A stretch of 64,000 nucleotides of DNA. Source: Candidatus Delongbacteria bacterium (GTDB taxonomy: Bacteria; CAIWAD01). The notes under the pieces were generated by a model. That model was not told where the DNA came from. It did not search any database and saw only the letters and a program-made list of their open reading frames with translations. The position numbers and the translations under genes are program-made. The stretch is taken from contig JBAYTZ010000014.1 in the NCBI GenBank assembly GCA_041675285.1, positions 22,891-86,890 on the forward strand, in the 5' to 3' direction. How positions within the stretch are numbered: position 1 is the first letter of the stretch; each line of letters starts with the position of its first letter. Of the stretch, positions 5,034 to 59,360 are shown piece by piece.

Positions 5034-5189
5034 CACTGGAACAATTGGCTTTCATCCCTTCGTTGCAGCTAAATGCTTGATAGTCAAAAGGTTGAGTGTT
5101 TCATTCTTGTGACAATTTTGACCCGTCAAACGCCGGTCAAATGGGTCCTATCCCGGTCTGATATTTGAAGGGTAACGAGCGAGGTGAGG

Positions 5190-6353
5190 ATGCTGAGGAT
5201 TCGATTCACGAAAGCGGCCCTGGAGGCCCTGCAGGGGGATGGTGCGAAGCGCACGTGGGTGTTCGACGATCAGGTGCCCGCGCTGGCCTGCATGGTGACC
5301 CCCGCGGGCGGGAAGTCCTTCTACGTGGTGAAGCACCGCAAAGGGCGCACACACCAGGTGCGCCTCGGCAGCGTGCAAGAATTGGCGGTGGATCGCGCCA
5401 GGCGCATGGCCATCGACATGGTGATGGAGATTCTAGCGGGCAGGGGGCCCGCGCCGGCGCGCCAAGTTGTGGAGGACGTGCCAGCCGAGCTCACGCTGAT
5501 GGAGGCATTTGAGGAATACATGGCGCACGCGGCCACCCGGCGGCGAGACGTGACGCTGGCAGAGTACCGGCGTGCCTGGGACATGCACCTGAGCACGTTG
5601 CAGGGGCGCCCTGTGCGCGAGCTGCGGCGGAAGGACGTGGAGGCCCTGCATCAGCGAATTGGGAAGGACAACGGCCGTATCGCTGCCAACCGCCTGGTGG
5701 CCACGCTGAAGGCTGTCCTGCATCGCGCCATTGCCGTGCACGAACTGGGCATTCCCAACCCCGCTGCGCGCATCGAGTTCTTTGAAGAACAGGAGCGCAC
5801 GCGACGGCTGGAAGCCCACGAGCTGCCGGCGTTCCTGAAGGCAATAGACGAGGATCCCAGCCGCGACCTGCGTGACTTCATCTTGCTCCTGCTCTTCACG
5901 GGAGTGCGCAAGACCAACCTGCTCGCCATGCGTTGGGAGCATGTATCACGCGAGAAGGCGCTCTGGACGATCCCAGGTGGGGAGTCGAAGACCCACCGCG
6001 AACTCCATGTGGTCCTATCCTCTCACGCCATGGCCATCCTGGAGCAGCGCGCGGCTGGGCATGCTGGGCCTTTCGTGTTCCCTGGACGCCAGAAGGGACA
6101 CATGGCATCACCGCAGAACGGCTGGGACCGCATTTGCGTGCGGGCCGGCCTCACCGACCTTCACATGCACGACCTGCGCCGCAGCCTGGCTTCCTTTCAG
6201 ATCGACACAGGCACGCCGCTGGAGGTGATCCAAAAGACGCTGGGTCATGAGTCCAAGGTGACTACGGAGATCTACGCCAGACTGGCGCTCGATCCCGTGC
6301 GGGCGAGTGTGGAGCGGGCGACGGAAGAGATGCTGCGGGCGAAGAAGGACTAA
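5190..6353 (+). CDS. int: tyrosine site-specific integrase, P4-type (N-terminal arm-binding DUF4102-like domain + catalytic domain)
   Basis: N-terminus KAALEALQGDGAKRTWVFDDQVPALACMVTPAGGKSFYVVKHRKGRTHQVRLGS is typical of P4-like integrases. C-terminal catalytic motifs HDLRRSLASF...LGHESKVTTEIYARL (H-x-x-R ... Y). RBS GAGG upstream of ATG 5190 (the track used an upstream GTG at 5184). Confidence 0.9.
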   Translation: MLRIRFTKAALEALQGDGAKRTWVFDDQVPALACMVTPAGGKSFYVVKHRKGRTHQVRLGSVQELAVDRARRMAIDMVMEILAGRGPAPARQVVEDVPAELTLMEAFEEYMAHAATRRRDVTLAEYRRAWDMHLSTLQGRPVRELRRKDVEALHQRIGKDNGRIAANRLVATLKAVLHRAIAVHELGIPNPAARIEFFEEQERTRRLEAHELPAFLKAIDEDPSRDLRDFILLLLFTGVRKTNLLAMRWEHVSREKALWTIPGGESKTHRELHVVLSSHAMAILEQRAAGHAGPFVFPGRQKGHMASPQNGWDRICVRAGLTDLHMHDLRRSLASFQIDTGTPLEVIQKTLGHESKVTTEIYARLALDPVRASVERATEEMLRAKKD

Positions 6354-6376
6354 GGCCACCGCACAACTGGCGGTGC

Positions 6377-6502
6377 AGCCTGGCTCACTTCCAGATTGAC
6401 GCCAGAACGCCGCTTGAGGCGGTTTAGAAGGAGCTGGGGCACGAGTCCAAGACGACCACTGAGATCTATGCCAGGATGGCACCGGAACCCCGTTCGGGCT
6501 AA
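6377..6502 (+). pseudogene. degenerate duplicate of the integrase 3' end (integrase C-terminal fragment with an in-frame stop)
   Basis: Translation SLAHFQIDARTPLEAV*KELGHESKTTTEIYARMAPEP parallels the intact Int C-terminus SLASFQIDTGTPLEVIQKTLGHESKVTTEIYARLALDP. Roughly 75-80% nucleotide identity by eye. Confidence 0.6.
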
Positions 6503-6877: not shown

Positions 6878-7822
6878 TTGAAATGTGAGAACTGGAACAT
6901 GTCTGATACGAAGTTTAGGGAACTTAAATTCAGATTACGGCTTTGGACGAACCGAATGCGATTTCAGATTTTGCGTAGTAAGAGAGGAATGCCGCTGAGA
7001 CTATACCTTGATCTTAGGTATAGGAGATTTGTACGGTGGACTATTTGGATGTTGGCAATGACAGGTCTATTGTCATCGTTCATTTCTTTTCAATCAGTAG
7101 TTGTGGCGTTTGTCTTTGGTTTGGTATTGTTTATCCTTGGTAAGGTTTTTGAGTTTTTCGCCTTTGCGCATCCTGCCGCATTTCTCCACGCACTTCCTAC
7201 ATTTGATATTGATCCAGCAAAGTGGACGGGCATGGTGTTTGGATATGCTTGTCCACCTGACAAATCGATTCCTGATGTTCCACTTGTGGGAATGGCTATC
7301 TCCGATCATAGTTATGCGAGGCAGCTGTCAGAACTCTTATTAGTTTGGTCGGACCAAGAAAAAGACGACAAGGATGGTTGCATTGTGGTAAGAGTAATTA
7401 TTCTCAATGAATCTGAGTATATGATCATCTGCAGACCTGGGATAAATAGAAAGAGAGCGAAAGATTTTTTTGACTTGCAGCGCCAGAATCTCAGCAAAGT
7501 GTCATTGATGGATATCGTTGTCGAACACCATGGAATGATTGTGTTTGGAAAGCGATGTGTGATCACAGCAAGCTCGTTCTTCCCCAAGTTTCGCGAAAAG
7601 TATAAAGATGGGACACCGGTTATATTTGGCTTCTTTGACGCGGACCGTCCAGAACTGGGCTTCATTGATGCTCTACCGCAGTTTAGGTTGTCTTCGTTTT
7701 CAATTGTCCGAAAAAATGAGCTGACAAGGCATGACCCGGAATATGATTTGCTGCCGCTTTGGGAAACTGGTGGAGTTTGGCAAGGCCCAGGTGAGCCGCC
7801 TACTCGGAAATCTTCGGCATAA
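6878..7822 (+). CDS. cassette 1: hypothetical membrane protein (2 N-terminal TM helices + cytosolic domain)
   Basis: 314 aa. Hydrophobic stretches LAMTGLLSSFISF and VVVAFVFGLVLFILG. No recognisable catalytic motif. Confidence 0.5.
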   Translation: MKCENWNMSDTKFRELKFRLRLWTNRMRFQILRSKRGMPLRLYLDLRYRRFVRWTIWMLAMTGLLSSFISFQSVVVAFVFGLVLFILGKVFEFFAFAHPAAFLHALPTFDIDPAKWTGMVFGYACPPDKSIPDVPLVGMAISDHSYARQLSELLLVWSDQEKDDKDGCIVVRVIILNESEYMIICRPGINRKRAKDFFDLQRQNLSKVSLMDIVVEHHGMIVFGKRCVITASSFFPKFREKYKDGTPVIFGFFDADRPELGFIDALPQFRLSSFSIVRKNELTRHDPEYDLLPLWETGGVWQGPGEPPTRKSSA

Positions 7823-7944
7823 CATGTGCTTGCAGCCGACTTTGCGCCTGTCACGGCGCTTGCGAGAAGTGAGCGAAGAGGAAGACAAAGAAAGCTAAGG
7901 CAAGCGCCGCGCCAGGCGCGCCGCGGCTGAAGCCAACGTTATGT
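7817..7944 (+). repeat. attC-like site 1 (GCATAAC ... GTTATGT)
   Basis: Inverse core overlaps the TAA stop. Internal inverted repeat GCGCCTGTCACGGCGCTTGC / GCAAGCGCCGCGCCAGGCGC. Shares a conserved family sequence with sites 3 and 5. Confidence 0.6.
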
Positions 7945-7976: not shown

Positions 7977-9671
7977 ATGACACCCGCAGAATTTGAGCAA
8001 TCCGTTGATAAAGCTGTTGAGCGACTGCAGATATTCGGTCTTCCCTCAAAGTGCATATTCGGTGCTGTGTTCGGTGTGATTGATAATTTGTTTAACGGTA
8101 AGAGATTTAGTGAAAACATCGAGCCAAGAATCGATGCAGGCTGCGCACTGATTGGTCGACTCTCCTATATGGCACCACTGTTACTTACATGCGATAGTAC
8201 GCAGATAGGTAGTAGCGCACTTGACACACAACAGGCTTACTTCTCCGTCGATTCAGATGGAGAACAGTTAAAGCTATTGCAAGCATATGGCCATTTCTGT
8301 GAGATAATGCCTGAAGTACATCGTGGATACTACAAGGTCATAGAATGCACTACAAACCGGTTGCGACTCGAACATAGCAGCCCTGAATTCAGGCACTCTG
8401 AATCGCTAGATATCATACTATCAGATTTAGCGTTGCCCTACCTTGTTCGTGTTCCTACAAACTACATGAATATGTTTGATAGGCAGGCAGAGCAATTACC
8501 AAAAGGAGACAGTGAGTTTCTAAACAAGACACTGGAAATTCTGTTTAATCATCACGCTACTCACACATTTGAAGTGCCAATATTATCATCCACAGGCTTT
8601 CTTTCGGGAGTTGGTGTATCCTATGAGGAATTTAAGCGTTTCCGTGCTGCATGGTTTGCATTCGCAGACTATTGTTTAGGAATGGCAGCAGCGATATCTC
8701 GATTAGGTGTAAACGACCCTAGCAGACAAGAGCAGTTGTTGCCTGAGCTATTCGAATGGCAGACCATAAACTTTAAAGAATATTTCTGCAAAGATCTAAT
8801 TATAAAAATCTCCAATATCCATCCCGATTCATATGAGAAGATTCTCAGCTTGTACTCATTCTACACTAATAATGAGGAATCTGACATGCGGTTCGGAGAT
8901 GGTTTTTTTCCGCCATTTATTCGGTACAAAGAATCTATCTGCTTCAATCCAAATACTCTTCAAATCATGCTTTCAGAAAGAAACATTCCCTATGTATTGA
9001 ACAAAATTGATCGAAAAAGATTTGATGGTGAGATATCAGAATACATGGAACCCCAGTTGATAAGTATTGCTGTAAAGCTGTTGAAGGCAATTGGCAATTG
9101 GGTGATAGTTGAGAACAAAGCCTGGGCGGGGGGTGAATTCGATATTCTGGTATATGCCCAACATGAAAACGTTGTACTGCATATCCAAGCAAAATCGGCC
9201 ATACCAGCACAAGGCGCAAGAATGATCAAGGCAAATGAAAGCCGCATCAAAGAAGGATTAAGGCAACTAAGAGTTTTCAGAGAAAAGCCTCAATCTTTTC
9301 AGGACTCGATCCTATCTAAGGCATTGGGCTTGAAAGTCTGCAACGCTTTAGTTTTAGATTCAGTACTTAGTCGTTCCAGTTTTGGAACTCATAACCTATG
9401 GTCAGAACTTGATAACACAATTCCATTGTCACCGACAATACTGTTGCACCTAGTGAGGAAGTACAAAGACTCAACACAACAAATTTTATTAACGGATATT
9501 AAGAATGAGATTGAGAGTTTCTTCGAGTTTATTTTGGATGATATGTGTCCGATATGGTCGGAAGCAATACTTGAAATTTCCGATAAGCAAGTTCTCTTTC
9601 CGCTGCTTGAGTTTGATGCAAACAATCTATCAAAACTGCGCGAAAGACTATGGAACTACTACGCAGTTTAA
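7977..9671 (+). CDS. cassette 2: hypothetical protein with a possible C-terminal PD-(D/E)xK nuclease-like motif
   Basis: 564 aa. Segment WAGGEFDILVYAQHENVVLHIQAKS fits D ... (E/Q)xK. Otherwise no similarity I can assign. Confidence 0.5.
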   Translation: MTPAEFEQSVDKAVERLQIFGLPSKCIFGAVFGVIDNLFNGKRFSENIEPRIDAGCALIGRLSYMAPLLLTCDSTQIGSSALDTQQAYFSVDSDGEQLKLLQAYGHFCEIMPEVHRGYYKVIECTTNRLRLEHSSPEFRHSESLDIILSDLALPYLVRVPTNYMNMFDRQAEQLPKGDSEFLNKTLEILFNHHATHTFEVPILSSTGFLSGVGVSYEEFKRFRAAWFAFADYCLGMAAAISRLGVNDPSRQEQLLPELFEWQTINFKEYFCKDLIIKISNIHPDSYEKILSLYSFYTNNEESDMRFGDGFFPPFIRYKESICFNPNTLQIMLSERNIPYVLNKIDRKRFDGEISEYMEPQLISIAVKLLKAIGNWVIVENKAWAGGEFDILVYAQHENVVLHIQAKSAIPAQGARMIKANESRIKEGLRQLRVFREKPQSFQDSILSKALGLKVCNALVLDSVLSRSSFGTHNLWSELDNTIPLSPTILLHLVRKYKDSTQQILLTDIKNEIESFFEFILDDMCPIWSEAILEISDKQVLFPLLEFDANNLSKLRERLWNYYAV

Positions 9672-9691
9672 TGGGAATCTAAATTGTAATA

Positions 9692-9822
9692 GCACATAAC
9701 AACTGCATGAAGCTGATGCCTCGCCTTGTCGCGGCCTTTGCCCTGGCAGATGACGCCTGCGCGTCAGGCTTGACGAGCAAAGCCCGCGCCAAGCCGGTCA
9801 CAGCTTATGCAGAACGTTATGC
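9692..9822 (+). repeat. attC-like site 2 (GCACATAAC ... GTTATGC)
   Basis: Inverted repeats GGCCTTTGC/GCAAAGCCC and CTGCATGAAGCTGATGCC/GGTCACAGCTTATGCAG. Ends 15 bp before the cassette 3 start (RBS AAGGAG + TTG). Confidence 0.55.
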
Positions 9823-9836
9823 ACAAGGAGCAGTAG

Positions 9837-10517
9837 TTGTCTAATCAAGAGATTGAAGAAACGACAGGCGATAGGCTGTCTCAGGCTAAGATCTACTTCG
9901 CATTTGTCAACGATCATGCCTCTTCACTTGATGACAAGGCGCGTACTCTTTTAACGATCGTATCATTACTAATCGGAACAGGGGTTCTGACTTTTTTCAA
10001 AGCGACTTTTGACAGTCAAGCAACCCTTAGCATTCGTCTAGCTTTTGTGGTGCTTGAATTGTCTCTATTGGCAACCTCAGCTGTTGCATTCTTCAAAATT
10101 CTGAACGTTTTGCGACTTCACGGATATAAGGGACCGCCTGATGCAAAAGGATTCCTGGAAAAGTTCAGAACAGAAGATGCCAAGACGACGAGGGAATCAC
10201 TGGCGCATTATTATGCTGCTGCGGCGGCAGAAAATTCAGAGCAAGTAAACACGATGGCCTCATGTTTGAAGGAGGCTTTCATTTGGACAAAAGTCGCATT
10301 CGGGGTGTTTCTGTTGTCAATCGTTACGTTAACACTCGCAATGTCATTTGGTGGAGAGCCAAAAATGTCAAACCAGAATGAAGCTCCAAAAAATCCCGCA
10401 AGCGGGACAACATCAGGTCAAGGATCGCAACCAACTCAACCGGCATCATCAGCACCGCCTGAACCTAAGCCAGTTCCGGGAACTCGAATTGAAAAGAGCG
10501 ATACACCTGGCAAGTAG
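9837..10517 (+). CDS. cassette 3: small 3-TM membrane protein with a low-complexity S/P/T-rich C-terminal tail
   Basis: 226 aa. TM segments LLTIVSLLIGTGVLTFF, LAFVVLELSLLATSAVAFF and VAFGVFLLSIVTLTLAMSF. Resembles small membrane effector/sensor proteins of defence systems (SLATT-like topology), but this is only topology-level similarity. Confidence 0.5.
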   Translation: MSNQEIEETTGDRLSQAKIYFAFVNDHASSLDDKARTLLTIVSLLIGTGVLTFFKATFDSQATLSIRLAFVVLELSLLATSAVAFFKILNVLRLHGYKGPPDAKGFLEKFRTEDAKTTRESLAHYYAAAAAENSEQVNTMASCLKEAFIWTKVAFGVFLLSIVTLTLAMSFGGEPKMSNQNEAPKNPASGTTSGQGSQPTQPASSAPPEPKPVPGTRIEKSDTPGK

Positions 10518-10527
10518 AAGTACGTAT

Positions 10528-10653
10528 GCATAACATGCCGTGCAGCCGACTATGCGCTTGTCACAGTGCTTACAGAACTTGACACAAAGAAACGTCGGTA
10601 AGACGAGGCAAGCGCCGCGCCAAGCGCGACGCGGCTGACGCCAGCCGTTAGGC
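10528..10653 (+). repeat. attC-like site 3 (GCATAAC ... GTTAGGC)
   Basis: Same sequence family as site 1 (TGCAGCCGACT.TGCGC.TGTCAC ... GCAAGCGCCGCGCCA.GCGCG.CGCGGCTGA.GCC). Confidence 0.6.
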
Positions 10654-10666
10654 ATTTGGGGGAAAG

Positions 10667-11674
10667 ATGATCAGAACAGCAGCGCAAGAAATCGAAAAAG
10701 TGGAAATGGGTAGACCGCACTTAGTCATTCTTGGCGCAGGGGCAAGTTACGCATCTACACCAACTGGCGATCGATTCGGAAAGCATCTCCCGCTGATGTC
10801 GAATTTGATTGAAATCCTTGAACTTGATGACATCGTTTCGAAATCTGGAATTGACTGTAGCAAGGGCAATTTTGAAACATTCTATTCGGAGCTTTACTTG
10901 CGAAAGGATATGGAATCGCAACGGAGAGAGCTCGAAGAGCGCATTCATCGCTACTTTAGCAGTTTGGAGTTACCGGAAGAACCCACTATCTACGACCATC
11001 TTGTTCTCAGTCTGCGCGAGAAAGACTATGTAGCGACATTCAATTGGGATCCTTTCCTGGTTCAGGCAATAAAGCGAAATGGCCGACGCTTCCCAATGCC
11101 CCGTCCACTTTTTCTCCATGGAAATGTAGCTGTCGGCTATTGTCGTCATGGGCATTCAATGGGTGACATTGGAAGTTGTTGCTCTAAATGTGGCGAGAGC
11201 TTTGTTCCGACAAGGATTCTGTACCCTGTTGCAGAGAAGAACTATCAAAACACTGAATTCATAGATCGGCAGTGGAGGGCAATCCAGGCAATTCTAAATG
11301 ATACATTTATGGTCACAGTTTTTGGCTATGGTGCCCCAGCCACAGATGCGAGTGCGGTTGAATTGCTGAAAACTGCCTGGGGTGGCGGCGACACTCGGGT
11401 TATGGAAGAGATTGAGATCATCGATATTCGCGATGATAATGAGTTAGAAGATCTTTGGTCACCGTTCATACATTCACATCATTACCGAGTGCACAGCTCC
11501 TTCTACGATTCGTGGATCTCAAAACATCCCCGCAGAACGGGCGAGGCCTATATCGATCAGTTCATCGATGCGATGTTCATCGAAGACAATCCTATTCCAC
11601 GTGGTTTGAGTTTTACCGGACTCTGGGATTGGTTTCAACCTTTGTCAGATGTAGAATTTGAGGCAAATGTCTGA
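10667..11674 (+). CDS. cassette 4: SIR2-like (SIR2_2 family) NAD-binding/NADase-type protein with an internal Cys/His Zn-ribbon-like insert
   Basis: Four SIR2_2 motifs in the same order as in ThsA-type SIR2 domains: LVILGAGAS (GAGxS), ATFNWDPF (TTNYD-like), LFLHGNV (catalytic HG), VFGYGAPATD (FVGFSFxD-like). Insert CRHGHSMGDIGSCCSKCGE resembles the sirtuin Zn module. Confidence 0.7.
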   Translation: MIRTAAQEIEKVEMGRPHLVILGAGASYASTPTGDRFGKHLPLMSNLIEILELDDIVSKSGIDCSKGNFETFYSELYLRKDMESQRRELEERIHRYFSSLELPEEPTIYDHLVLSLREKDYVATFNWDPFLVQAIKRNGRRFPMPRPLFLHGNVAVGYCRHGHSMGDIGSCCSKCGESFVPTRILYPVAEKNYQNTEFIDRQWRAIQAILNDTFMVTVFGYGAPATDASAVELLKTAWGGGDTRVMEEIEIIDIRDDNELEDLWSPFIHSHHYRVHSSFYDSWISKHPRRTGEAYIDQFIDAMFIEDNPIPRGLSFTGLWDWFQPLSDVEFEANV

Positions 11675-11795
11675 CAAGAACTTGCAATTGCCCCGCCCAG
11701 CGTCACGCCGCTTGCGTTGGACGCGACGCTAATCTTGGACGGAAATGTTCGCAAGCGGCGCGCCTCTGGGTGGGCAATTGAAGTCAACGTTAGGT
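11674..11795 (+). repeat. attC-like site 4 (... GTTAGGT)
   Basis: Inverted repeats GCAATTGCCCCGCCCAGCGTCACGCCGCTTGCG / CGCAAGCGGCGCGCCTCTGGGTGGGCAATTG. 3' core GTTAGGT lies 25 bp before the cassette 5 ATG. The 5' inverse core is poorly matched (CAAGAAC). Confidence 0.5.
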
Positions 11796-11819: not shown

Positions 11820-12704
11820 ATGAAGATATTCCCTGATCCACCGCGCTTTGCTGATGAAGTCATCAGGTCATGTAAGCGAACGAATGATTATAGACCTATA
11901 ATATTCGAGTGGTATCAACACGTAATGATGCTTGCTAATGAGGTTTCCCTAATAAGCTTTGAATCACCTTCGGTTAGACAATTGAATAGATTGCAACATA
12001 TTGTTCTAGCTGGACTTCTATTTAGATGCAGTAGACTCATGAACTCGGTAGCATTAATTTCACGGAATGGCGAGTTTGGTGAAACTACAGCTATTCTGGA
12101 TCGATGTATATTTGAATCTTCAATAAAAGTTGTTTGGTTATGTCGAAGCGGGACTTATGACAAGTTTGTGCGATTCATGGCCAATGGTCTGAAAGCCGAT
12201 GTTTGTTTGAAGAATGAAATCGAAAAGGAGATCAAATCGCGAGGAGGAGCAGTACTGGAGATCGAAAATCGAATGCTGAAGTCAATTGAGAATTTCTTAG
12301 AGATTTCAAATCTTAGTGAAGAGGATGTAAGAGATTGTAAATGTCTTCCTCGTTTTGATATCATGATGCGTGAAATTGGGGAAAGTGATCTTGGTTATAT
12401 AGTAGGACAGAAGATTAACTCACACTTTGTTCACGGAACATGGTCTGGAATGCTACATCATTGTCTGAAGGTTGGTGATGATGGACTGTTGCATGTGGGA
12501 AGAAGTAGATGTCAAACGCACTTCAGTCAGTATTTAGGTACGGCGCTACAGGTTGTCGTTGCGGTATATGCTTATTGTGAATGGATGTTTGATCAGTCAA
12601 CTGCAAAAGTTTTCAAGGATGCTCTTCAGTTTGTTTATGATGAAGTGCTCAAGGTGGAACAGTCTGCAATGGGACGAGATTTTGACGAGGTGAATGGAAC
12701 CTAA
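11820..12704 (+). CDS. cassette 5: hypothetical protein
   Basis: 294 aa, low-GC ORF with plausible protein composition. No assignable motif. Confidence 0.5.
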   Translation: MKIFPDPPRFADEVIRSCKRTNDYRPIIFEWYQHVMMLANEVSLISFESPSVRQLNRLQHIVLAGLLFRCSRLMNSVALISRNGEFGETTAILDRCIFESSIKVVWLCRSGTYDKFVRFMANGLKADVCLKNEIEKEIKSRGGAVLEIENRMLKSIENFLEISNLSEEDVRDCKCLPRFDIMMREIGESDLGYIVGQKINSHFVHGTWSGMLHHCLKVGDDGLLHVGRSRCQTHFSQYLGTALQVVVAVYAYCEWMFDQSTAKVFKDALQFVYDEVLKVEQSAMGRDFDEVNGT

Positions 12705-12830
12705 CAACAGCTTGCAGCCGACTTTGCGCCTGTCACGGCGCTTGCAGGCTGGATTTGAAGAAACGTCGGTAGGAAAAAGCAAGCGACGCGCCAGACGCGT
12801 CGCGGCTGAAGCCGCGGAGCCAAAGTCCTC
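12700..12830 (+). repeat. attC-like site 5 (ACCTAAC ...; conserved family body but no canonical GTTRRRY 3' core)
   Basis: Same family body as sites 1 and 3 up to GCGGCTGAAGCC, then diverges (GCGGAGCCAAAG). A lone GCCTAAC occurs about 60 bp downstream (12888-12894). Confidence 0.45.
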
Positions 12831-37923: not shown

Positions 37924-39203
37924 TGGTCGACAAGGGCTTTCCAGCCGGTTACGAGCCGCAGGGGAGCACTGAGGCTGCCGAGTGGTACCGCCTAGCCGCT
38001 GAGCAAGGGAATACAATGGCCCAGCGCAATCTGGGGGTCATGTACTACAACGGCGAGGGCGTGCTGCAAGACTACACAGAGGCTGTCAAGTGGTTTCGAC
38101 TAGCGGCTGAGCAGGGGTACGCGCCGGCTCAGTATAACCTGGGGGTTGCGTGCGCCAAGGGCCTGGGCGTGCCGCAGGACTACGTTGAGGCCGTCAAGTG
38201 GTACCGCCTGGCTGCTGAACATGGGAACGCAGGAGCCCAGTTAAATCTGGGATTCTTGTACCACAGCGGCGAGGGCGTGCCGCAGAACGGCGCTGAAGCC
38301 GTCAAGTGGTACCGCCTTGCGGCGGAGCAAGGCAATGTAAGTGCCCAGAACAACCTGGGAGTCATGTACAAGAGCGGCCAGGGTGTGCCGCAGGACTACA
38401 TTGAGGCCGTTAAGTGGTACCGCCTTGCGGCGGAGCAAGGACATGTAAGTGCCCAGAACAACCTGGGGGACATGTACAGTGGCGGCCAAGGCGTGCCGCA
38501 GGACTACGCAGAGGCCGCCAAGTGGTCCCGCCTTGCCGCGGAGCAGGGGTGCGCGCCGGCACAGTACAATCTAGGGGTTGCATGCGCCAAAGGCAGGGGC
38601 GTGCCGCATAACGACGCAGAGGCAGTCATGTGGTACCGCCTAGCCGCTGCGCAGGGGTACGCACCGGCTCAGTACAACATGGGAGTCATGTACGACGACG
38701 GCCGAGGCGTGCCGCAGGACTACGTTGAGGCTGCCAAATGGTACCGCCTAGCCGCTGAGCAGGGCCATGTAAGTGCCCAGAACAACTTGGGGGGCATATA
38801 CGGCGGCGGACAAGGCGTGCCGCAGGATGACGCAGAGGCTGCCAAGTGGTTCCGCCTAGCAGCGGAGCAAGGCCATGTAGGTTCCCAGTACAACCTGGGG
38901 GTTGCGTGCCACCTCGGCCAAGGCGTGCCTCAGAACTACGCGGAAGCAGCCAAGTGGTACCGCCTAGCCGCTGAGCATGGGTACGCACCGGCTCAGTACA
39001 ACCTGGGTGTCATGTACAACGACGGCCGAGGCGTGCCGCAGGACTATATCATGGCTCACCTGTGGTGGAACCTTGCTGCCACCAGCGGGGATGAGGACGC
39101 GGTGAGGGGTAGAGGCACTGTGGCTGGCAAGATGACCCCTGCCCAAATCGCAGAGGCGCAACGTCTCGCCCGCGAGTGGAAGCCCACACCGGAGAAGCCA
39201 TGA
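37923..39203 (+). CDS. Sel1-repeat (SLR/TPR-like) protein, ~11 tandem 36-aa repeats
   Basis: Repeating AEAVKWYRLAAEQG.A.AQ.NLG.MY..G.GVPQDY units. GGAGG RBS. Stop overlaps the methyltransferase start. Confidence 0.85.
   Translation: MVDKGFPAGYEPQGSTEAAEWYRLAAEQGNTMAQRNLGVMYYNGEGVLQDYTEAVKWFRLAAEQGYAPAQYNLGVACAKGLGVPQDYVEAVKWYRLAAEHGNAGAQLNLGFLYHSGEGVPQNGAEAVKWYRLAAEQGNVSAQNNLGVMYKSGQGVPQDYIEAVKWYRLAAEQGHVSAQNNLGDMYSGGQGVPQDYAEAAKWSRLAAEQGCAPAQYNLGVACAKGRGVPHNDAEAVMWYRLAAAQGYAPAQYNMGVMYDDGRGVPQDYVEAAKWYRLAAEQGHVSAQNNLGGIYGGGQGVPQDDAEAAKWFRLAAEQGHVGSQYNLGVACHLGQGVPQNYAEAAKWYRLAAEHGYAPAQYNLGVMYNDGRGVPQDYIMAHLWWNLAATSGDEDAVRGRGTVAGKMTPAQIAEAQRLAREWKPTPEKP
37960..39110 (+). repeat. DNA-level tandem repeat (period 108 bp) encoding the Sel1 repeats
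   Basis: Recurring ...gtggtaccgcct.gc.gc.gagca.gg... units visible in the sequence. Confidence 0.6.
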
Positions 39204-42200
39204 GCAAGACCCAAGACCGGAACTGGGAGCGCCTGCGCTCCATCAAGACGATCGAGGAGCTGCTAGCCTATTTGAGGGAGGAGCTTGACTGGCCGCTCGA
39301 AGGCGCGGACGTCGAGGACGTCGCCTTCGAATACACACCCGAGGAGCTGGGCCTGGAGCCCGCCCTGGCGGTTAAGATCGATTCCATTCACCGTCTGCGT
39401 CCGCTGAGCACGCACCAACCCTGGGGCATTTTCTTCGTCGACTTCGAGCCCAAGAATCTGCCCGTCACGGCCCTGCGCCGCATCCTGGGCCGCGTGGTCT
39501 TGAAGAAGCGCGCCAAGGGCAGCGCGCAGGCCTGGCACGCAGACGACCTGCTCTTCATCTCCACCTACGGGCAAGGGCCCAGCCGCCAGATCTGCCTGGC
39601 GCACTTCTCCGCCAGCGAGGGAGCGCGCGACCTACCCACCCTCAAGGTGCTGGGCTGGGACGAGCAGGACACGGCACTGCACCTTGCCCACGCCGCCAAC
39701 ACCCTGGTCAAGCACCTCACGTGGCCGGAAAACGAGAACGACCTGGAGATCTGGCGCAAGACTTGGAGCGCAGCCTTCACGCTGGGGCATCGGGAAGTCA
39801 TCTCCACGGCCAAGGATCTCTCCATTCGGCTGGCGGCGCTGGCGAGGGCGATTCGCCTGCGCATCACCACGGCGCTGGCGATCGAGAGCGAGAGCGGCCC
39901 GCTCACGCGTCTGATGCATGCCTTCCGCGAGGCCCTGGTCCACGACCTGACGGTGGAGAGCTTCGCCGACATGTACGCCCAGACCATCGCCTACGGCCTG
40001 CTCTCGGCGCGCATCACTGATCCACACAAGAAGACTGCTGACGATTTCGCAGGTCACTTGCGCACCAACCCCTTCCTGCGGGAGCTGATGGAGACCTTCC
40101 TGAAGGTGGGTGGACGGCAAGGGAAAGCGGGCGGGTCAGGCATCGACTTCGATGAGCTGGGCGTCTTCGATGTGGTGGAGCTGCTGGACGACGCCAACAT
40201 GGAGGCCGTCGTCCGCGACTTCGGCGACAGGAACCCACAGGAAGACCCAGTCATCCATTTCTATGAGGAGTTTCTTCGGCATTACGATCCAGGTGAGAAG
40301 AAAAAGCGTGGCGTCTTCTACACGCCGCGCCCGGTGGTAAGCTACATCGTGCGCTCGGTGGACGAGCTGCTGCGAACGGAGTTCGGCCTGGAGGACGGGC
40401 TGGCCGACACCACCACGTGGGGCGAGATGCTACAGCGACAGCCCGGCCTGCAGCTGCCCAACCTCTCAGAGGACTCCGACCACCCGCGCCTGCTGGACCC
40501 GCAGCATCCCTTCGTGCAGATCCTCGACCCGGCCACGGGCACGGGCACCTTCCTCGTTGAGGTCATCGAGATCATCCACCGCACGATGACCACCAAGTGG
40601 ACGGCCCACGGTCACAGCGAGAAGCAGATCGAGGCGCTCTGGAACGCCTATGTGCCGCGCCACCTGCTGCCGCGCCTGCACGGCTACGAGCTGCTCATGG
40701 CGCCCTACGCCATCGCCCATCTCAAGATCGGCCTCAAGCTCCATGAGACGGGCTACCACTTCGACAGCGAGGAGCGGGCACGCATCTACCTGACCAACGC
40801 CCTGGAGCCGGCCAACGACAAGCAGATCACGACGGCCATGCTGCCGGCGCTGGCGCACGAAGCTCAAGCGGTCAGCATGATTAAACGTCACCAAAGGTTC
40901 TCCGTCATCATTGGTAATCCTCCATATGCAAGAGATTCCGCAAACCGCAGTGATTATGCGGAGAATCTCGTAGCAATCTACAAGGAGGACGTGAGGAATG
41001 AACGAAACATCCAACCTCTGTCTGATGACTATGTGAAATTCATCGGGATGGCTCAAGCCGTAATGTCATCATGCGGTACAGGAATTGTTGGATTCATCAC
41101 AAATCACAGCTTTATTAAGGGAGTAATTCATCGAGGGCTAAGAAGACGTGTTTGTCAGTTCTTCCAGAGGGCATACTTTTTGGACCTTCACGGCAACTCG
41201 AACATCAACGAGCAGCCGCCAAAGGACATTGAGGACGAAAACGTCTTTGACATTCGACAAGGTGTTGCAGTCTCATTGCTGACCAGAGTTTCCGCTGTTG
41301 TTGGTTATAAAGACCAAACTAAAGTTTCTGAACTCTGGGGAAAGCGGACAGAGAAATATGAATATTTACTGAAGCAAAGACATGGTGATAATGATTGGAT
41401 TCTCGTTGAACCAAAACCGCCGGAATACGAACTCATTGTAGCCGGTGATGGATCTACTCAAGTTGAATTTGATTCGTTATTCCACCTGCATGATTGGTTT
41501 CCAACTTCAGCGACTGGATTTATCACGCACCGTGACGAATTGGTGATCGATTATGATCAGTCAAACCTTATGCGAAGGATTCACGATTTAGTGGATAAAA
41601 ATATTTCTGATGAAGAGGTTATCAAGAAATATTCCTTAGAGAGCAATTCGGACTGGAATCCAATTGATGCTAGAAAACAACTTCGGGCAGTAAAGGAGTT
41701 ACAAGAAAGAGTTGTTCGTTGCACTTATCGCCCGTTTGATAGTAGATGGTGCTGGTGGGGACGAGAACTAATGGATCGCCCGCGTCAGGAGTTATTTGAG
41801 TTTTTCGTAAAACCTAACTTGACGCTGTTATGTAAACGACAGAACAAAAGGACTCCTTTCTCTTACGCATTTGTTGCCTCTGAAATAACAGAAAGTTGCA
41901 CATTTGAGAGTGCACATGCGAATAATGTTGCGTTTCCAATCTTCGTCCACACAAATGACCTGTTGTTTGGGAAGAACATCATTCATCCAAACATTGGTGA
42001 TGAAATTGTAAGTAGAGTTCGAAGACGGCTTAATTTGAATTTAGTTTCGCTTGCTATGGGTGATTTGAAGGTGACCTGCGGGCCGCGCGATTTATTGCAC
42101 TACGTATATGCAACCATTCATGCACCTAGCTACCGGACGAGATATGAGGCGTGCCTGATTAAAAGCTTCCCGCGCATTCCGTTGACATATAATCTGGACC

Positions 42201-42715
42201 TGTTCCGCGACCTCACACTTTTTGGCGGCAGGCTCGTCGCTTTGCATCTGCTGGAGTCGCCCACCCTCGACCACTTCATCACCACCTACGCCGGCCCGCC
42301 CCAACCAGAAGTCGGGCGCGTGGGCTGGTCGGATGGCACAGTCTGGTTGGATGCCGCGGCCACCAAGAAAGGGCAGCCCGCCACGCCCGGCAGAATGGGC
42401 TTCAAGGGCGTGCCCGAGGAAGTCTGGAACTTCCACATCGGCGGCTACCAGGTCTGCGAGAAGTGGCTGAAGGACCGCAAGGGGCGGCGGCTGTCGGACG
42501 AGGACATCGCCCATTACCAGAAGATTGTCGTGGCGCTGAAGGAGACGATCCGCCTGATGGGCGAGATCGACGAGGTCATTGAGAAGCATGGCGGGTGGCC
42601 GGGGGCGTTTGCCGCAGGACCGGCGGCGGGTGCGGCGGACTATCCGACCTGCGAGACGGGGCAACGCAAGGCGGCGGAAACGGGCGACCTGTTTGGGCAA
42701 AATGCGGAGTCTTGA
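39200..42715 (+). CDS. type IIG restriction-modification / PglX-like gamma-class N6-adenine DNA methyltransferase (1171 aa), GC-mosaic
   Basis: Motif X/I GVFYTPRPVVSYIV and LDPATGTGTFLVEV, motif IV VIIGNPPYARDS, long C-terminal TRD-like region. GC drops from ~65% to ~40% between ~40860 and ~42200 within the ORF. Confidence 0.85.
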   Translation: MSKTQDRNWERLRSIKTIEELLAYLREELDWPLEGADVEDVAFEYTPEELGLEPALAVKIDSIHRLRPLSTHQPWGIFFVDFEPKNLPVTALRRILGRVVLKKRAKGSAQAWHADDLLFISTYGQGPSRQICLAHFSASEGARDLPTLKVLGWDEQDTALHLAHAANTLVKHLTWPENENDLEIWRKTWSAAFTLGHREVISTAKDLSIRLAALARAIRLRITTALAIESESGPLTRLMHAFREALVHDLTVESFADMYAQTIAYGLLSARITDPHKKTADDFAGHLRTNPFLRELMETFLKVGGRQGKAGGSGIDFDELGVFDVVELLDDANMEAVVRDFGDRNPQEDPVIHFYEEFLRHYDPGEKKKRGVFYTPRPVVSYIVRSVDELLRTEFGLEDGLADTTTWGEMLQRQPGLQLPNLSEDSDHPRLLDPQHPFVQILDPATGTGTFLVEVIEIIHRTMTTKWTAHGHSEKQIEALWNAYVPRHLLPRLHGYELLMAPYAIAHLKIGLKLHETGYHFDSEERARIYLTNALEPANDKQITTAMLPALAHEAQAVSMIKRHQRFSVIIGNPPYARDSANRSDYAENLVAIYKEDVRNERNIQPLSDDYVKFIGMAQAVMSSCGTGIVGFITNHSFIKGVIHRGLRRRVCQFFQRAYFLDLHGNSNINEQPPKDIEDENVFDIRQGVAVSLLTRVSAVVGYKDQTKVSELWGKRTEKYEYLLKQRHGDNDWILVEPKPPEYELIVAGDGSTQVEFDSLFHLHDWFPTSATGFITHRDELVIDYDQSNLMRRIHDLVDKNISDEEVIKKYSLESNSDWNPIDARKQLRAVKELQERVVRCTYRPFDSRWCWWGRELMDRPRQELFEFFVKPNLTLLCKRQNKRTPFSYAFVASEITESCTFESAHANNVAFPIFVHTNDLLFGKNIIHPNIGDEIVSRVRRRLNLNLVSLAMGDLKVTCGPRDLLHYVYATIHAPSYRTRYEACLIKSFPRIPLTYNLDLFRDLTLFGGRLVALHLLESPTLDHFITTYAGPPQPEVGRVGWSDGTVWLDAAATKKGQPATPGRMGFKGVPEEVWNFHIGGYQVCEKWLKDRKGRRLSDEDIAHYQKIVVALKETIRLMGEIDEVIEKHGGWPGAFAAGPAAGAADYPTCETGQRKAAETGDLFGQNAES

Positions 42716-42750
42716 TCGCAGCTAGGTGGGCGCCAGGCCGAGAGGTGAAC

Positions 42751-43455
42751 ATGGAACCAGGTCCGATCCGTTACCGGGACTTGCCGGATGATTTCCTGCT
42801 GCGGGCGGAATTGGTTTTTCACGCCATTGAAGATGCCGGCCTGATGGAGCGAACGGATTTCCTCGTCAACTTCCAGCGCGAGATTCATCCCATGCGGGAA
42901 TTGATGCTGTGGGAGCGGCTTGCCGTGGCCTATCGGAGCCGGTGGCGCAACCGAGCGGGCTCGGTCGCGGAGCGCAAGTCGTGGTTGACCTTGCTTCTTC
43001 TGGCATCCAGTGGCGCGACGGCACATGAAGGGGATCTGACTGGGGCACTGGAGCTGGAAGAAGCGCGCTTGGCCTTTCAGGAGGCCGCCACGGCGGGTAG
43101 AAACTGCTTGTCGAGCGCCGTTGATGCGCGTGCGGTGAAACAAAGCACCCTGGCGTTGGCGGCGATTCTGAGTCGGGACATTGGTCGTGCCATTCAATTC
43201 CACTGGAACCAGATCGACCGGCTGTTGGAATCGGAAGCATGGGAACCGGATGAGGTGGAAGCTCGGCTGCGAGAACTGCATGCCACGGTGGACGAACTGG
43301 CTGATGAACGCGAAAACCTGTCAATAGAACTCAATGACCGGTCTGATGAGCTGGAAGCCATGATCCAGGGGAAGCGCGAGATACTTGAAAGGGAGCGTCG
43401 CGAGGAGCTGCTGCGGCAATCCAGTCTGGGCAATCTATTCGGCGAGGAGAACTGA
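42751..43455 (+). CDS. hypothetical coiled-coil protein (first gene of a 3-gene operon)
   Basis: GAGGTGA RBS. 234 aa. C-terminal coiled coil (ELHATVDELADERENLSIELNDRSDELEAMIQGKREILERERREE). Confidence 0.45.
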   Translation: MEPGPIRYRDLPDDFLLRAELVFHAIEDAGLMERTDFLVNFQREIHPMRELMLWERLAVAYRSRWRNRAGSVAERKSWLTLLLLASSGATAHEGDLTGALELEEARLAFQEAATAGRNCLSSAVDARAVKQSTLALAAILSRDIGRAIQFHWNQIDRLLESEAWEPDEVEARLRELHATVDELADERENLSIELNDRSDELEAMIQGKREILERERREELLRQSSLGNLFGEEN

Positions 43456-43456
43456 G

Positions 43457-44620
43457 ATGGACGTGCTGGAACTCCAACACATCGGGCAAATCCAAAAAGC
43501 CCGAATCGAGTTTGGGGATCTCACCGTTTTGGTGGGTCCTCAAGCCACTGGCAAGAGCATAACACTACAGCTACTCAAGTTGTTGGTTGACATGCGCCAC
43601 GTTCAGGAAGACCTTCGTCGTCACGGCTTGGACTGGGGCGGCAAGCTGCCTGAGTTCCTTGACCTCATGCTTGGCGAAGGCATGCACTCCATCTGGTCTG
43701 AGAAGAGCACGATTCGCTGGCAGAACCGCGATGTGGACATGGTAGCGCGCGCCAAGCGTCGCATCAAGGCGCCTGAGCTTGGGCAAGGAGAGCAGATGTT
43801 CTTCATCCCAGCGCAACGAGTATTGACTCTGCGCGACGGCTGGCCGCGCCCCTTCACTGATTACTCCGCCGGTGATCCCTTCGCAGTGCGGGAGTTCAGC
43901 GAAAAGTTGCGCCTGCTGATGGAGCAGGAATTCGTTCAGGGTGATCAGCTCTTTCCACGCGCTAATCGGTTGAAACAAATCTATCGAGACGAGTTACGTG
44001 CTCACGTGTTCGCCGGGTTTGATTTGAAGGTGGACCGTTCCCGACCACAGAAGCGTATGGTTCTAGGTAATGCACATGGCGAACTCCCGTTTATGGTTTG
44101 GTCGGCGGGGCAACGAGAATTCATGCCGCTATTGCTCGGCCTCTATTGGTTGATGCCACCCGGGAGAATGGCAAAGCGGAAGTCCGTGGATTGGGTTGTT
44201 GTAGAAGAGCTTGAAATGGGGCTCCATCCGCGAGCTATCAGCCTGATGTTACTGCTGGTGCTGGAGTTGCTCTCACGCGGCTATAGAGTCTGTTTGTCGA
44301 CACACTCACCACAAGTCTTAGAAATGGTTTGGGCCTTGAATCACTTACGTGAGCAGAATTCCAGTGAGTCAAAGTTAGGCAGATTGTTTGACGTGCAAGC
44401 TGGCACTCAATTAAAGGCTGTTTTTCATGATACAATGAAGCGAGTGTTTAAGGTCTACTATTTCGAGCGTGATGGTGCAGTACGAAACATTTCTGGGCTT
44501 GATCCAGGTTCAACAGAGTCCTTTGTTGCAGGTTGGGGAGGCCTAACGGACTTCAGTGCAAGAGCCAATGAAGTTGTGGCATCTGCCGTGGCTGATGGGC
44601 TGCGGAGGCGCAAAGCATGA
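43457..44620 (+). CDS. ABC-type (AAA_15/AAA_21-like) ATPase of the OLD/abortive-infection type
   Basis: Walker A LVGPQATGKS. Distal D-loop/Walker B block DWVVVEELEMGLHP typical of the AAA_21 family. Start 2 nt after the upstream stop. Confidence 0.7.
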   Translation: MDVLELQHIGQIQKARIEFGDLTVLVGPQATGKSITLQLLKLLVDMRHVQEDLRRHGLDWGGKLPEFLDLMLGEGMHSIWSEKSTIRWQNRDVDMVARAKRRIKAPELGQGEQMFFIPAQRVLTLRDGWPRPFTDYSAGDPFAVREFSEKLRLLMEQEFVQGDQLFPRANRLKQIYRDELRAHVFAGFDLKVDRSRPQKRMVLGNAHGELPFMVWSAGQREFMPLLLGLYWLMPPGRMAKRKSVDWVVVEELEMGLHPRAISLMLLLVLELLSRGYRVCLSTHSPQVLEMVWALNHLREQNSSESKLGRLFDVQAGTQLKAVFHDTMKRVFKVYYFERDGAVRNISGLDPGSTESFVAGWGGLTDFSARANEVVASAVADGLRRRKA

Positions 44621-45072
44621 CTTTCACACAAGCAGTTGCAGCCTCACCTGACATTGCAAGCGCATATCAGCGAGGTTTAGGAGCATTGAAGGCTGTAGAT
44701 CGTGCTCATATTACGGTCAATAAGTCCACAAAACTCAAGGGAAGTGTTGATATTGATTCAACGTTGCAATCTAAGTGCCCAACTGAACACCGTTGGGATT
44801 ATGGGATTGGTAAGTCACAGGGTGGGAAGAAGGGTGATAAAGTCATCTGGGTTGAAATCCATCCAGCAAAAGACGGTGAAATCAATACGATGATGGACAA
44901 ATTGGCCTGGTTGAAGTCTTGGCTTCAGACATCCGCTACTGACTTGGATGCATTGTCGCGTGAATTCATATGGATATCAAGCGGAAAAACTACCATCACG
45001 CAAGGTAGCCCCGCAGCGAGAAAAATGGCCTTGGCTGGGTTGAGATTAGCGGGACATCATCTTCATCTTTGA
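44617..45072 (+). CDS. hypothetical small protein (151 aa) translationally coupled to the ATPase
   Basis: 4-nt ATGA overlap with the ATPase gene. No recognisable motif. Confidence 0.45.
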   Translation: MTFTQAVAASPDIASAYQRGLGALKAVDRAHITVNKSTKLKGSVDIDSTLQSKCPTEHRWDYGIGKSQGGKKGDKVIWVEIHPAKDGEINTMMDKLAWLKSWLQTSATDLDALSREFIWISSGKTTITQGSPAARKMALAGLRLAGHHLHL

Positions 45073-58545: not shown

Positions 58546-59169
58546 TCACTTCTTGTCAGTGATGGCCGAGATGCCTTTGATCTGAAACCAGCTCTTTGAA
58601 GGTAGAAGCGGGGAATAGAATCTATTACCGCCAACCCTTGTAGCTGTCTGAATCAAGGCATCCATTGCGGCACCTAGTCCATCCTCCTTGTAGGCTGTTG
58701 ATCGGCTTCCATTTGTAAGGCAAGGTATACTAGGATGTTTTATGTCTGAAAGGTATGCATCGAAGGTATCACGTGCCACAGCCATGCCAAAAATGCGCCA
58801 AGCATACTTCCTTCCCAGATAGTGACCATCAGGTGCGCTATATTGAATTCGATCATCTGATTTTTGCGTTTCGAGAGCTCTACATTCCTCCCCGAGCAAG
58901 CGTGCGACGTAGTGACTCTTGTGCGGATCTACTTCGTCTGCCTTTGCAGTAGCCGATACATCAACCCAGTTCAAGCCGTTTTTAACAGTAAATCCTATAT
59001 TGTATCTCTGTCCTTCCATGAGAATTGGTTCATGATTCGCAATGAATTGGTACACCGTGGTTGTGTTTTTCGGAGAAAAGCTGTGTAAAAACTTGCCATT
59101 CGGATAGGGAATAATATTGTAGTTTGTGACAATCAAGACTGGCGTAGTATGTAACTTTCGAGACTTCAT
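58546..59169 (-). CDS. hypothetical protein (low GC) downstream of hamB
   Basis: Start MKSRKL with GAGGAG RBS (rc ATG 59167-59169). The track ORF extends further upstream in frame to 59325. No motif assigned. Confidence 0.45.
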   Translation of the reverse strand: MKSRKLHTTPVLIVTNYNIIPYPNGKFLHSFSPKNTTTVYQFIANHEPILMEGQRYNIGFTVKNGLNWVDVSATAKADEVDPHKSHYVARLLGEECRALETQKSDDRIQYSAPDGHYLGRKYAWRIFGMAVARDTFDAYLSDIKHPSIPCLTNGSRSTAYKEDGLGAAMDALIQTATRVGGNRFYSPLLPSKSWFQIKGISAITDKK

Positions 59170-59360
59170 CGGTCTGGTCTCCTCAAAGTGATTAGTAGGC
59201 TTGAGATCCTTTGGGTTGGCTCGAAGCTCTTGCGGGGCCACTCCCGGACGTGAAAGCCGTCGCCATTTCCTCCCAAAGAGAGTTTTGGAGCGAGTAATCA
59301 ACAATCCTTGACTATACTCAATCATATACCATGCCGAAACATACTTGGCGGGGTTTTTAG

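Follow-up and report, generated by a model that had tools for sequence, protein, structure and literature searches.

Can a single short gene, carried as one cassette among unrelated ones, make up a whole anti-phage system? The question is raised by a stretch of 64,000 nucleotides from Candidatus Delongbacteria bacterium (GenBank assembly GCA_041675285.1, contig JBAYTZ010000014.1, positions 22,891 to 86,890 of the forward strand), which is referred to here at its full length as the window. The fourth of five gene cassettes in this window encodes a stand-alone protein of 335 residues that resembles SIR2 enzymes. A first-pass annotation of the DNA had described a protein with four SIR2_2 motifs and a Cys/His-rich insert, carried as an integron cassette, and had proposed it as a candidate effector that depletes nicotinamide adenine dinucleotide (NAD+) during phage attack. 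The predicted structure places the protein in the SIR2/sirtuin structural superfamily, and its sequence relatives point to a compact metal site right after the putative catalytic histidine. From fold, residue conservation and genomic context only, we infer a function, and we lean, if slightly, towards a self-contained single-gene NAD+-consuming anti-phage (abortive-infection) effector.

The open reading frame (ORF) and all four motifs quoted in the first-pass annotation are present. Their positions in the window, with residue numbers (aa) of the protein, are as follows.

10667..11674, plus strand, stop included: gene of the stand-alone protein with predicted SIR2 fold, ATG start, 335 aa

10733..10747, plus strand: GAGAS (aa 23-27), the dinucleotide-binding glycine loop, identified by conservation in 111 family members and by hhalign against GAGvS of SIR2_2

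11036..11050, plus strand: TFNWD (aa 124-128; quoted earlier as TFNWDPF, aa 124-130), with the Asn-x-Asp of the putative catalytic triad

11114..11125, plus strand: LHGN (aa 150-153), with the putative catalytic His151-Gly152

11141..11191, plus strand: zinc-knuckle insert (aa 159-175), C159-x2-[H/D/C]-x9-C172-x2-C175

11321..11347, plus strand: FGYGAPATD (aa 219-227; VFGYGAPATD at aa 218-227), the equivalent of the fourth SIR2_2 motif, F-x-G-Y-x-x-x-D

11429..11671, plus strand: C-terminal region specific to the family (aa ~255-335), in which W264, H272 and P288-R289-R290 are conserved

The identical protein is already deposited at NCBI as a "hypothetical protein" from a metagenome-assembled genome. 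At least cassettes 2-5 also occur, in unchanged order, in a second independent assembly.

The strongest statement about this protein concerns its fold. An AlphaFold2 model, built on an alignment of 26 sequences, was confident, with a predicted local distance difference test score (pLDDT) of 82.8 and a predicted template modelling score of 0.86. It combines a Rossmann-type large domain with a small domain, as do the solved SIR2 structures. All 19 Foldseek matches at an expectation value (E) of 1e-3 or less have the SIR2 fold, with proteins of SIR2-HerA systems ranked first and archaeal and bacterial sirtuins (Af1, CobB) directly behind them. The best structural match is PsSIR2 of SIR2-HerA, and the superposition on the best SIR2 structure covers only about 237 of the 335 residues. 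In two independent structure comparisons, every strong match was a SIR2 protein, and a clear gap preceded the first non-SIR2 folds. Around TFNWD the model shows a strand (121-124) and a helix (130-139), as are found around TQNID of Sir2Tm. The lowest-confidence part of the model is aa 222-226 within FGYGAPATD (pLDDT < 50). Neither a non-SIR2 Rossmann family nor a fold without the HG pocket was found, and the SIR2-like assignment of the first-pass annotation is upheld at the level of the predicted structure.

The residues of the putative active site are conserved far beyond this one protein. Conservation was assessed in an alignment of 111 diverse members, whose identity to the query is 32-49%. 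Full invariance is limited to 12 columns, among them G23, G25, N126, D128, H151, G152 and G220, and the motifs are therefore not due to chance. A24, A26, S27, Y221, A223, P224 and D227 are each conserved in at least 90% of the members. The combination of N126, D128 and H151 is found in 111 of 111, so that the catalytic His and Asn/Asp, whose conservation had been named as a point to check, are strictly kept as N-x-D and H-G. In PsSIR2, a putative catalytic triad of N163, D165 and H212 has been described (PMC11472057), and in SaSir2 the residues N226 and H287 have been assigned as catalytic. By comparison of the sequences, N126, D128 and H151 are the putative NAD-pocket set that matches the N-x-D...H arrangement of defence SIR2 NADases and sirtuins.

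Sequence libraries give a different picture from the structure comparisons. The query is matched at E <= 1e-3 by 3,955 clusters at 90% identity; at 50% identity, the matching representatives number 1,418. Nearly all of the 120 relatives that match best are 322-375 aa long and, among the matches listed, none carries a Pfam domain or a name; some distant representatives reach 430-510 aa and have N-terminal extensions. Searches of Pfam (at E <= 1), NCBIfam and PADLOC with the query returned no SIR2, SIR2_2, DUF4917 or AbiH match, and no second Pfam domain was found in the 335-aa protein. For the 111 relatives, Pfam SIR2_2, DUF4917 and SIR2 were missing from the best 25 of the 91 Pfam families matched. 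The Pfam search for SIR2_2 (PF13289) or DUF4917 that the first-pass annotation had recommended is therefore negative for both the query and its relatives. Weak matches to AbiH (PF14253) were obtained for three of the 111 (best E 0.008), a few family members weakly match the Aga_SIR2, SIR2 and AbiH models, and weak Pfam zinc-ribbon matches also occur in the family.

Profile comparisons gave weak signals. When the PDB sequences were searched, a profile of 26 sequences gave junk matches only (E >= 0.03), and the sole match of the wider profile of 111 sequences was the deacetylase Sir2Tm, at E 0.16. In the HMMER alignment, LHGNV of the query falls onto the identical LHGNV of Sir2Tm, and C159 falls onto the first Cys after that motif. 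Faint as they are, these sequence signals all lead to SIR2. A SIR2_2 profile was also prepared from 42 PF13289 proteins; this profile itself finds KomC, DSR2, ThsA and FAM118B. Its hhalign comparison with the family was weak (probability 11-12%, E 0.0025). A permissive local alignment brought three of the four motifs into register (GAGAS with GAGvS, LHGN with IHGSV, FGYG with VGYG), with the Cys-rich segment standing out as a clean insertion of 17 residues. The same program placed TTNYD on PTiYD (aa 106-110), and this placement was rejected on secondary-structure grounds. In global mode no motif-consistent alignment was obtained, and comparison with a single SIR2_2 sequence was uninformative. 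Since Pfam is negative and the hhalign probability so low, the protein is best described as SIR2-fold by prediction yet not a detectable SIR2_2 member; membership of SIR2_2 is not established.

These library results are what a reader would hold in favour of a superficial SIR2 resemblance, in which another Rossmann-type enzyme or an inactive scaffold carries the motifs by coincidence. The curated libraries are negative, the hhalign score is low with the Asn-x-Asp motif misplaced, and the PDB search reaches no better than E 0.16. Nevertheless, such an explanation is very improbable. Two structure comparisons that are independent of each other returned SIR2 proteins as all their strong matches, and the columns invariant in the 111 members are those that define the sirtuin active site.

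The most distinctive feature of the family lies directly after LHGN. A cluster of Cys and His residues (C159, H161, H163, C171, C172, C175) occupies this position in the query. Each of C159, C172 and C175 is found in 91% of the 111 members. All three occur together in 99 members and are lost together in eight, with partial sets in only four, and position 162 is H in 38, D in 33 and C in 20 (82% in total). The fact that the three Cys residues are kept or lost together indicates a real metal site, of zinc. The segment is modelled as short beta hairpins with a pLDDT of 88-94. The alignments with Sir2Tm and SIR2_2, together with the co-variation of the Cys residues, bear out the earlier statement that a Cys/His-rich insert occupies the place of the sirtuin zinc module. 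On this sequence evidence, the family carries what is indicated to be a compact Cys3 plus His/Asp/Cys metal site, inserted right after the putative catalytic His. The family thus pairs an overall fold like that of defence SIR2 proteins with a very small zinc element where sirtuins have theirs.

What such an element means for activity is less simple. Canonical sirtuins contain the zinc module, which they require for deacetylation; SIR2_2-type proteins do not have it. Bacterial defence SIR2 proteins have no zinc finger, and the FGE loop, together with the zinc finger, is needed for deacetylation (PMC11472057). Because defence SIR2 proteins are without the module and canonical deacylating sirtuins possess it, the knuckle argues somewhat for an activity directed at proteins over plain NAD+ hydrolysis. 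The enzyme might then be an NAD+-dependent deacylase or ADP-ribosyltransferase acting on a specific host or phage protein, with the knuckle aiding substrate binding; it could thereby act in regulation or in defence, and bulk depletion of NAD+ would not be involved. In favour of this are the conserved zinc site, whose sirtuin counterpart goes with deacetylase activity and is not found in defence NADases of the SIR2_2 type, the ranking of Af1 and CobB directly behind SIR2-HerA in Foldseek, and the fact that the sole PDB sequence match of the wide profile is a deacetylase. The comparison with canonical sirtuins (Sir2Tm/CobB, Sir2-Af1, Hst2, SIRT1-7; PF02146) extends to the shared LHGNV, the first zinc Cys in the same place and the metal site after the catalytic His. 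However, the differences are considerable. The knuckle of 17 residues is much smaller than the sirtuin module, with only nine residues between the ligand pairs, and its second ligand is His, Asp or Cys. It is followed by LLYPV-x2-K-[DN]-Y instead of the FGE loop, and Pfam SIR2 is not matched. Finally, a mobile family spread sporadically through cassettes and defence islands is unlike the housekeeping sirtuins of the CobB type. For these reasons, a protein-directed sirtuin is considered rather unlikely, although it is the most serious competitor of the effector that consumes NAD+.

The second line of evidence is the genomic setting. The gene lies in an island of about 6.5-12.9 kb with 41-48% GC, set in surrounding sequence of 62-75% GC and in a genome of 65-70% GC; the cassette array is foreign, low-GC DNA. 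It consists of five consecutive ORFs on the same strand (6878-7822, 7977-9671, 9837-10517, 10667-11674 and 11820-12704), each followed by an attC hairpin, and the 3' spacers are mutually alignable. The consensus structure of the five spacers is a long imperfect hairpin of 37 pairs, 16 of which show compensatory changes, a count that comes from only five copies. Single-base bulges are present in the stems. When a covariance model of the five sites was run over the window, it matched exactly those five and nothing else. When the single-stranded DNA was folded and compared with shuffled sequences, three of the five sites gave z-scores of -5 to -9.6; the other two, one of which is the site upstream of the SIR2-like gene, were marginal (-2.0 and -1.5). 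The motif GTTRRRY terminates four of the five sites, right before the next start codon. The sites that delimit the SIR2 cassette and the end of the array are these.

10528-10653, plus strand: attC of the preceding cassette (cassette 3), supported by the alignment and consensus fold; covariance model 127 bits, arm duplex -28.6 kcal/mol

11672-11795, plus strand: attC of the SIR2 cassette; single-stranded DNA fold -34.8 kcal/mol, z -5.2, covariance model 110.7 bits

12700-12815, plus strand: terminal attC-like hairpin of cassette 5; covariance model 116 bits

The left boundary of the SIR2 cassette is GTTAGGC at 10647-10653, 14 nt ahead of the ATG, and the right boundary is GTTAGGT at 11789-11795; the left core of its own attC is degenerate. 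With the GTT triplets of the upstream attC (10647-10649) and of its own attC (11789-11791) as end points, the cassette occupies about 10648-11789, or approximately 1.14 kb. The five attC-type hairpins, their consensus fold and the covariance model thus confirm that the SIR2-like gene is an integron cassette. In the fifth attC (12700-12830), the left and inner arms are intact, no GTTRRRY right core was found, and the GC content is at host level just past it; the array therefore ends in a truncated attC.

No integron integrase was found in the 64 kb by IntI protein comparison (E <= 1e-15), and the array is of the CALIN type, a cluster of attC sites lacking an integron integrase, and not a complete integron. 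Elsewhere, the same gene is repeatedly a cassette in bona fide integrons, although in a minority of loci. At five loci (L002, L003, L018, L019, L040), homologues have an IntI with the ALARKYP patch no more than 6 kb away, and the attC model derived from the window matches sites that abut the homologue at five (L002, L003, L019, L023, L040). The frequency of attC flanks among homologues was estimated by an arm-duplex score, adopted after an earlier minimum-free-energy heuristic had recovered two of five known sites and was replaced as too strict. The arm-duplex score misses degenerate sites, so the cassette frequencies that it gives are lower bounds.

The gene is widely distributed. When one genome was taken per species, relatives were detected in 580 species genomes, from Gammaproteobacteria, Cyanobacteria, Chlorobi and Planctomycetes to the candidate phyla radiation (CPR), a methanogen and Asgard archaea. 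The best 80 of the 580 are 45-62% identical to the query, and such a wide and sporadic spread at this identity indicates frequent horizontal transfer. Relatives that are 46-51% identical occur in genome bins of Asgard archaea (L063, L066, L067), Methanolinea (L043) and CPR (L053, L054, L082). This apparent host range is unusually wide for so well-conserved a protein.

If the protein worked with a fixed partner, one would look for it among the neighbours. ORFs within 2.5 kb were clustered over 83 distinct loci, and no family was present in more than four of them; the commonest, in four loci, was the integron integrase. Among 126 immediate neighbours, a set from which the 24 longest were left out, no Pfam or PADLOC family appeared more than twice. 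The description of the gene as stand-alone thus agrees with both scans. In the cyanobacterial loci L016, L022 and L026, the gene stands in a common local arrangement beside very large ORFs (~1,200-1,500 aa). This is the only conserved synteny seen, and it probably reflects shared ancestry rather than functional partnership.

The further surroundings of homologues are characteristic of defence or variable regions. Homologues are found with a TIR_2 cassette and DUF2726, with a KAP NTPase, and in a cluster of SIR2_2, TIR_2 and PLD genes. One lies by a type I-F CRISPR-Cas locus on the Legionella plasmid pLPL, and another in an island of McrBC, SLATT and SIR2 genes on a Vibrio plasmid. Mrr, SoFic, Schlafen-AlbA_2 and specificity subunits of type I restriction-modification systems are further neighbours. 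Toxin-antitoxin genes (HepT/MNT, ParE, YoeB/Phd) are also among them, and homologues occur on plasmids and genomic islands. Such company allows for a protein that serves the mobile element itself, either as a toxin-like factor of addiction or competition or as a destroyer of NAD-derived immune signals in anti-defence and conflicts between elements. The travel of the gene with integrons, plasmids and genomic islands fits this, as do its toxin-antitoxin neighbours and the 15 viral or prophage contigs of IMG/VR in which the family was detected. However, those 15 come from 2.9 million contigs, and none of 50,697 isolate phage genomes carries the family; by the same counts, a phage-borne origin is not supported. 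There is also no small antitoxin-like gene that recurs beside the homologues in the 83 loci, and the strict conservation of N, D and H together with the wide chromosomal spread fits an enzyme that benefits the host at least equally. A role in the service of the mobile element is therefore improbable, more so than the protein-directed sirtuin.

The neighbouring cassettes of the window, two of which had been noted by the first-pass annotation at 9837..10517 and 11820..12704, exist as described. Together with the recombinase gene that adjoins the array, they are listed here.

5184..6353, plus strand: phage-type tyrosine recombinase adjoining the array upstream; Pfam Phage_integrase and Arm-DNA-bind_3

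6878..7944, plus strand: cassette 1, ORF 6878..7822 (314 aa) and attC 7817-7944

7977..9823, plus strand: cassette 2, ORF 7977..9671 (564 aa) and attC 9694-9823

9837..10517, plus strand: ORF of cassette 3, a 226-aa membrane protein, weakly PycTM-like; PADLOC PycTM E 3e-4, precomputed PF18967 match flagged as weak

11820..12815, plus strand: cassette 5, ORF 11820..12704 of a DUF5677 protein (Pfam E 2e-14) and terminal attC-like hairpin

The recombinase was ruled out as an integron integrase, with 21.5 bits against TIGR02249 and a cutoff of 265. Right after its stop, at 6374-6483, stands a degenerate second copy (~74% identical) of the 3' end of that gene (6180-6305). The copy is placed where the GC content drops into the cassette island, and it has the look of a scar, left either by a second, related integrase or by an insertion at an integrase 3' end. 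The protein of cassette 1 has no match in Pfam or NCBIfam, and that of cassette 2 has none in Pfam, NCBIfam or PADLOC; in the C-terminal part of the latter, the segment GGEFDILVY...VLHIQAKS is, by eye only, reminiscent of a PD-(D/E)xK nuclease motif. PycTM is the transmembrane effector of Pycsar. The protein of cassette 3 has a tail rich in Pro, Ser and Thr and no cyclase nearby, and this cassette may encode a lone membrane effector. The suggestion that such neighbours could be partners delivered separately was rejected, since in the other loci of the family the 6 kb around the gene contain no homologue of the four other cassette proteins.

How would a protein of this kind act? The proposed mechanism is built on analogy with SIR2-HerA, ThsA, DSR2 and KomC and with the proposal made for AbiH. 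NAD+ would be bound in the cleft that separates the Rossmann domain from the small domain of helices and zinc knuckle, and the enzyme would cleave its nicotinamide-ribose bond. In healthy cells it would be held inactive. A cue derived from the phage, sensed by the small domain, the zinc knuckle or the C-terminal 80 residues, would switch it on, with oligomerisation possibly a part of this step. The loss of NAD+, or the ADP-ribosylation of a target, would then halt the infected cell ahead of the production of phage progeny, and the outcome would be single-gene abortive infection, as has been proposed for AbiH. The C-terminal ~80 residues may accordingly have a regulatory, sensor or oligomerisation role.

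A comparison with known systems helps to place the family. The nearest by structure is SIR2-HerA (Nezha; PsSIR2 8w9l/8wld, 8yhx, EcSir2 8j4u/8suw), in which the SIR2 protein is of similar size (337-408 aa versus 335) and carries the same N-x-D...H set. The sequence identity is only 11-15%, no HerA gene adjoins the cassette gene in the window or, among the neighbour families listed, its homologues in the 83 other loci, and the zinc knuckle of the family has no counterpart in these defence proteins. The SIR2_2 defence NADases (PF13289: ThsA, DSR2, KomC, Avs5, SIR2 associated with prokaryotic Argonaute (pAgo), FAM118) have the defence-island context in common with the family and, in the permissive hhalign alignment, GAGxS, HG and F-x-G-Y in register. 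They differ in that the family falls below every Pfam and PADLOC threshold, and in that they are without a zinc module and have SLOG, STAND, pAgo, KomA/B or large C-terminal modules of their own. The definition of the Thoeris ThsA, DSR, Avs5 and SPARSA systems, a SIR2 domain fused to or paired with a sensor or partner, does not cover a protein of 335 aa with no conserved neighbour. AbiH is a lactococcal single-gene abortive-infection protein with a sirtuin-like fold and a proposed depletion of NAD+ (PMC13064643). Like the query, it is encoded by a single gene, has about 350 aa and is carried on mobile elements, but the query has no PF14253 match, and the weak matches are limited to the three relatives mentioned above.

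The cassette itself also has published parallels. Integron cassettes serve as banks of streamlined defence genes, and many of them are anti-phage systems (bioRxiv 10.1101/2024.07.02.601686, 10.1101/2024.07.02.601719). The defence cassettes of mobile integrons (BRiCs) and of sedentary chromosomal integrons likewise consist of a single compact ORF with its own attC among unrelated cassettes; the array of the window differs from them in having no IntI within 64 kb and in adjoining a phage-type integrase. In the main text of three integron-defence papers there is no mention of SIR2, sirtuin or AbiH. SIR2 effectors that deplete NAD+, sirtuin-like abortive infection by a single gene and integron defence cassettes are thus already known, and what is new is a solitary SIR2-fold family that bears a zinc knuckle.

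Several points weigh against a self-contained NAD+-consuming effector. Each of the characterised defence SIR2 NADases comes with a partner or sensor domain (HerA, SLOG/ThsB, pAgo, STAND, KomA/B), and Sir2 by itself is inactive in SIR2-HerA. The cassette protein has only about 80 residues beyond its SIR2-like part. The library negatives and the leaning of the knuckle towards protein substrates, both described above, count in the same direction. As for its setting, attC-like flanks are present at only 11-13% of homologue loci compared with 1-5% in controls, and some homologues stand among ordinary genes, for instance between mutS and a UvrD helicase or near metabolic genes. With regard to expression, consensus scanning for a promoter in the array gave no signal above chance.

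A bolder proposal can be set beside the self-contained effector. The family may be an unrecognised class of self-sufficient immune sirtuins, standing between the zinc-less SIR2_2 NADases and the canonical sirtuins that contain zinc, with the knuckle and the C-terminal 80 residues as a built-in phage sensor or switch. This is a tentative idea, possible rather than probable. If it is true, one protein of 335 aa would both detect infection and deplete NAD+ or ADP-ribosylate a target, and its small size would explain how it spreads through bacteria, CPR and Asgard archaea in the form of one integron cassette.

Two other regions of the window deserve a description. At 39176-45072 there is what looks like a second defence cluster. 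It contains a type ISP / type IIG-like restriction-methyltransferase of 1,179 aa (Type_ISP_C, N6_Mtase, Eco57I and MmeI domains), with a low-GC segment at 41-42 kb inside its gene. This is followed by an Abi-type ATPase (AAA_21/AAA_15) at 43385-44620, the stop of which overlaps a 151-aa ORF (44617-45072). On the minus strand, at 58546-62376, lies a low-GC island (46-52% GC) with a protein of 767 aa that has a DEAD-box helicase domain, flanked by ORFs of 259 and 245 aa without a Pfam match; it may be a further acquired module. The covariance model found no attC sites in this island or in the other low-GC islands of the window.

The meaning of the finding depends on how the function turns out. 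The reduced zinc site is relevant to the evolutionary route that has been proposed to lead from SIR2_2 proteins of the NADase type to the zinc-dependent deacylating sirtuins. If the protein is a working single-gene defence that depletes NAD+, it would rank with the smallest SIR2 immune effectors that are self-contained. It would then also be a tractable model of how a SIR2 domain is kept silent and triggered without a separate sensor or partner. The tools used for defence annotation would gain a family of about 1,400 clusters (50% identity), present in those 580 species genomes and at present always labelled "hypothetical". In that case, the cassette would provide a concrete example, across phyla, of integron cassettes storing compact immune genes.

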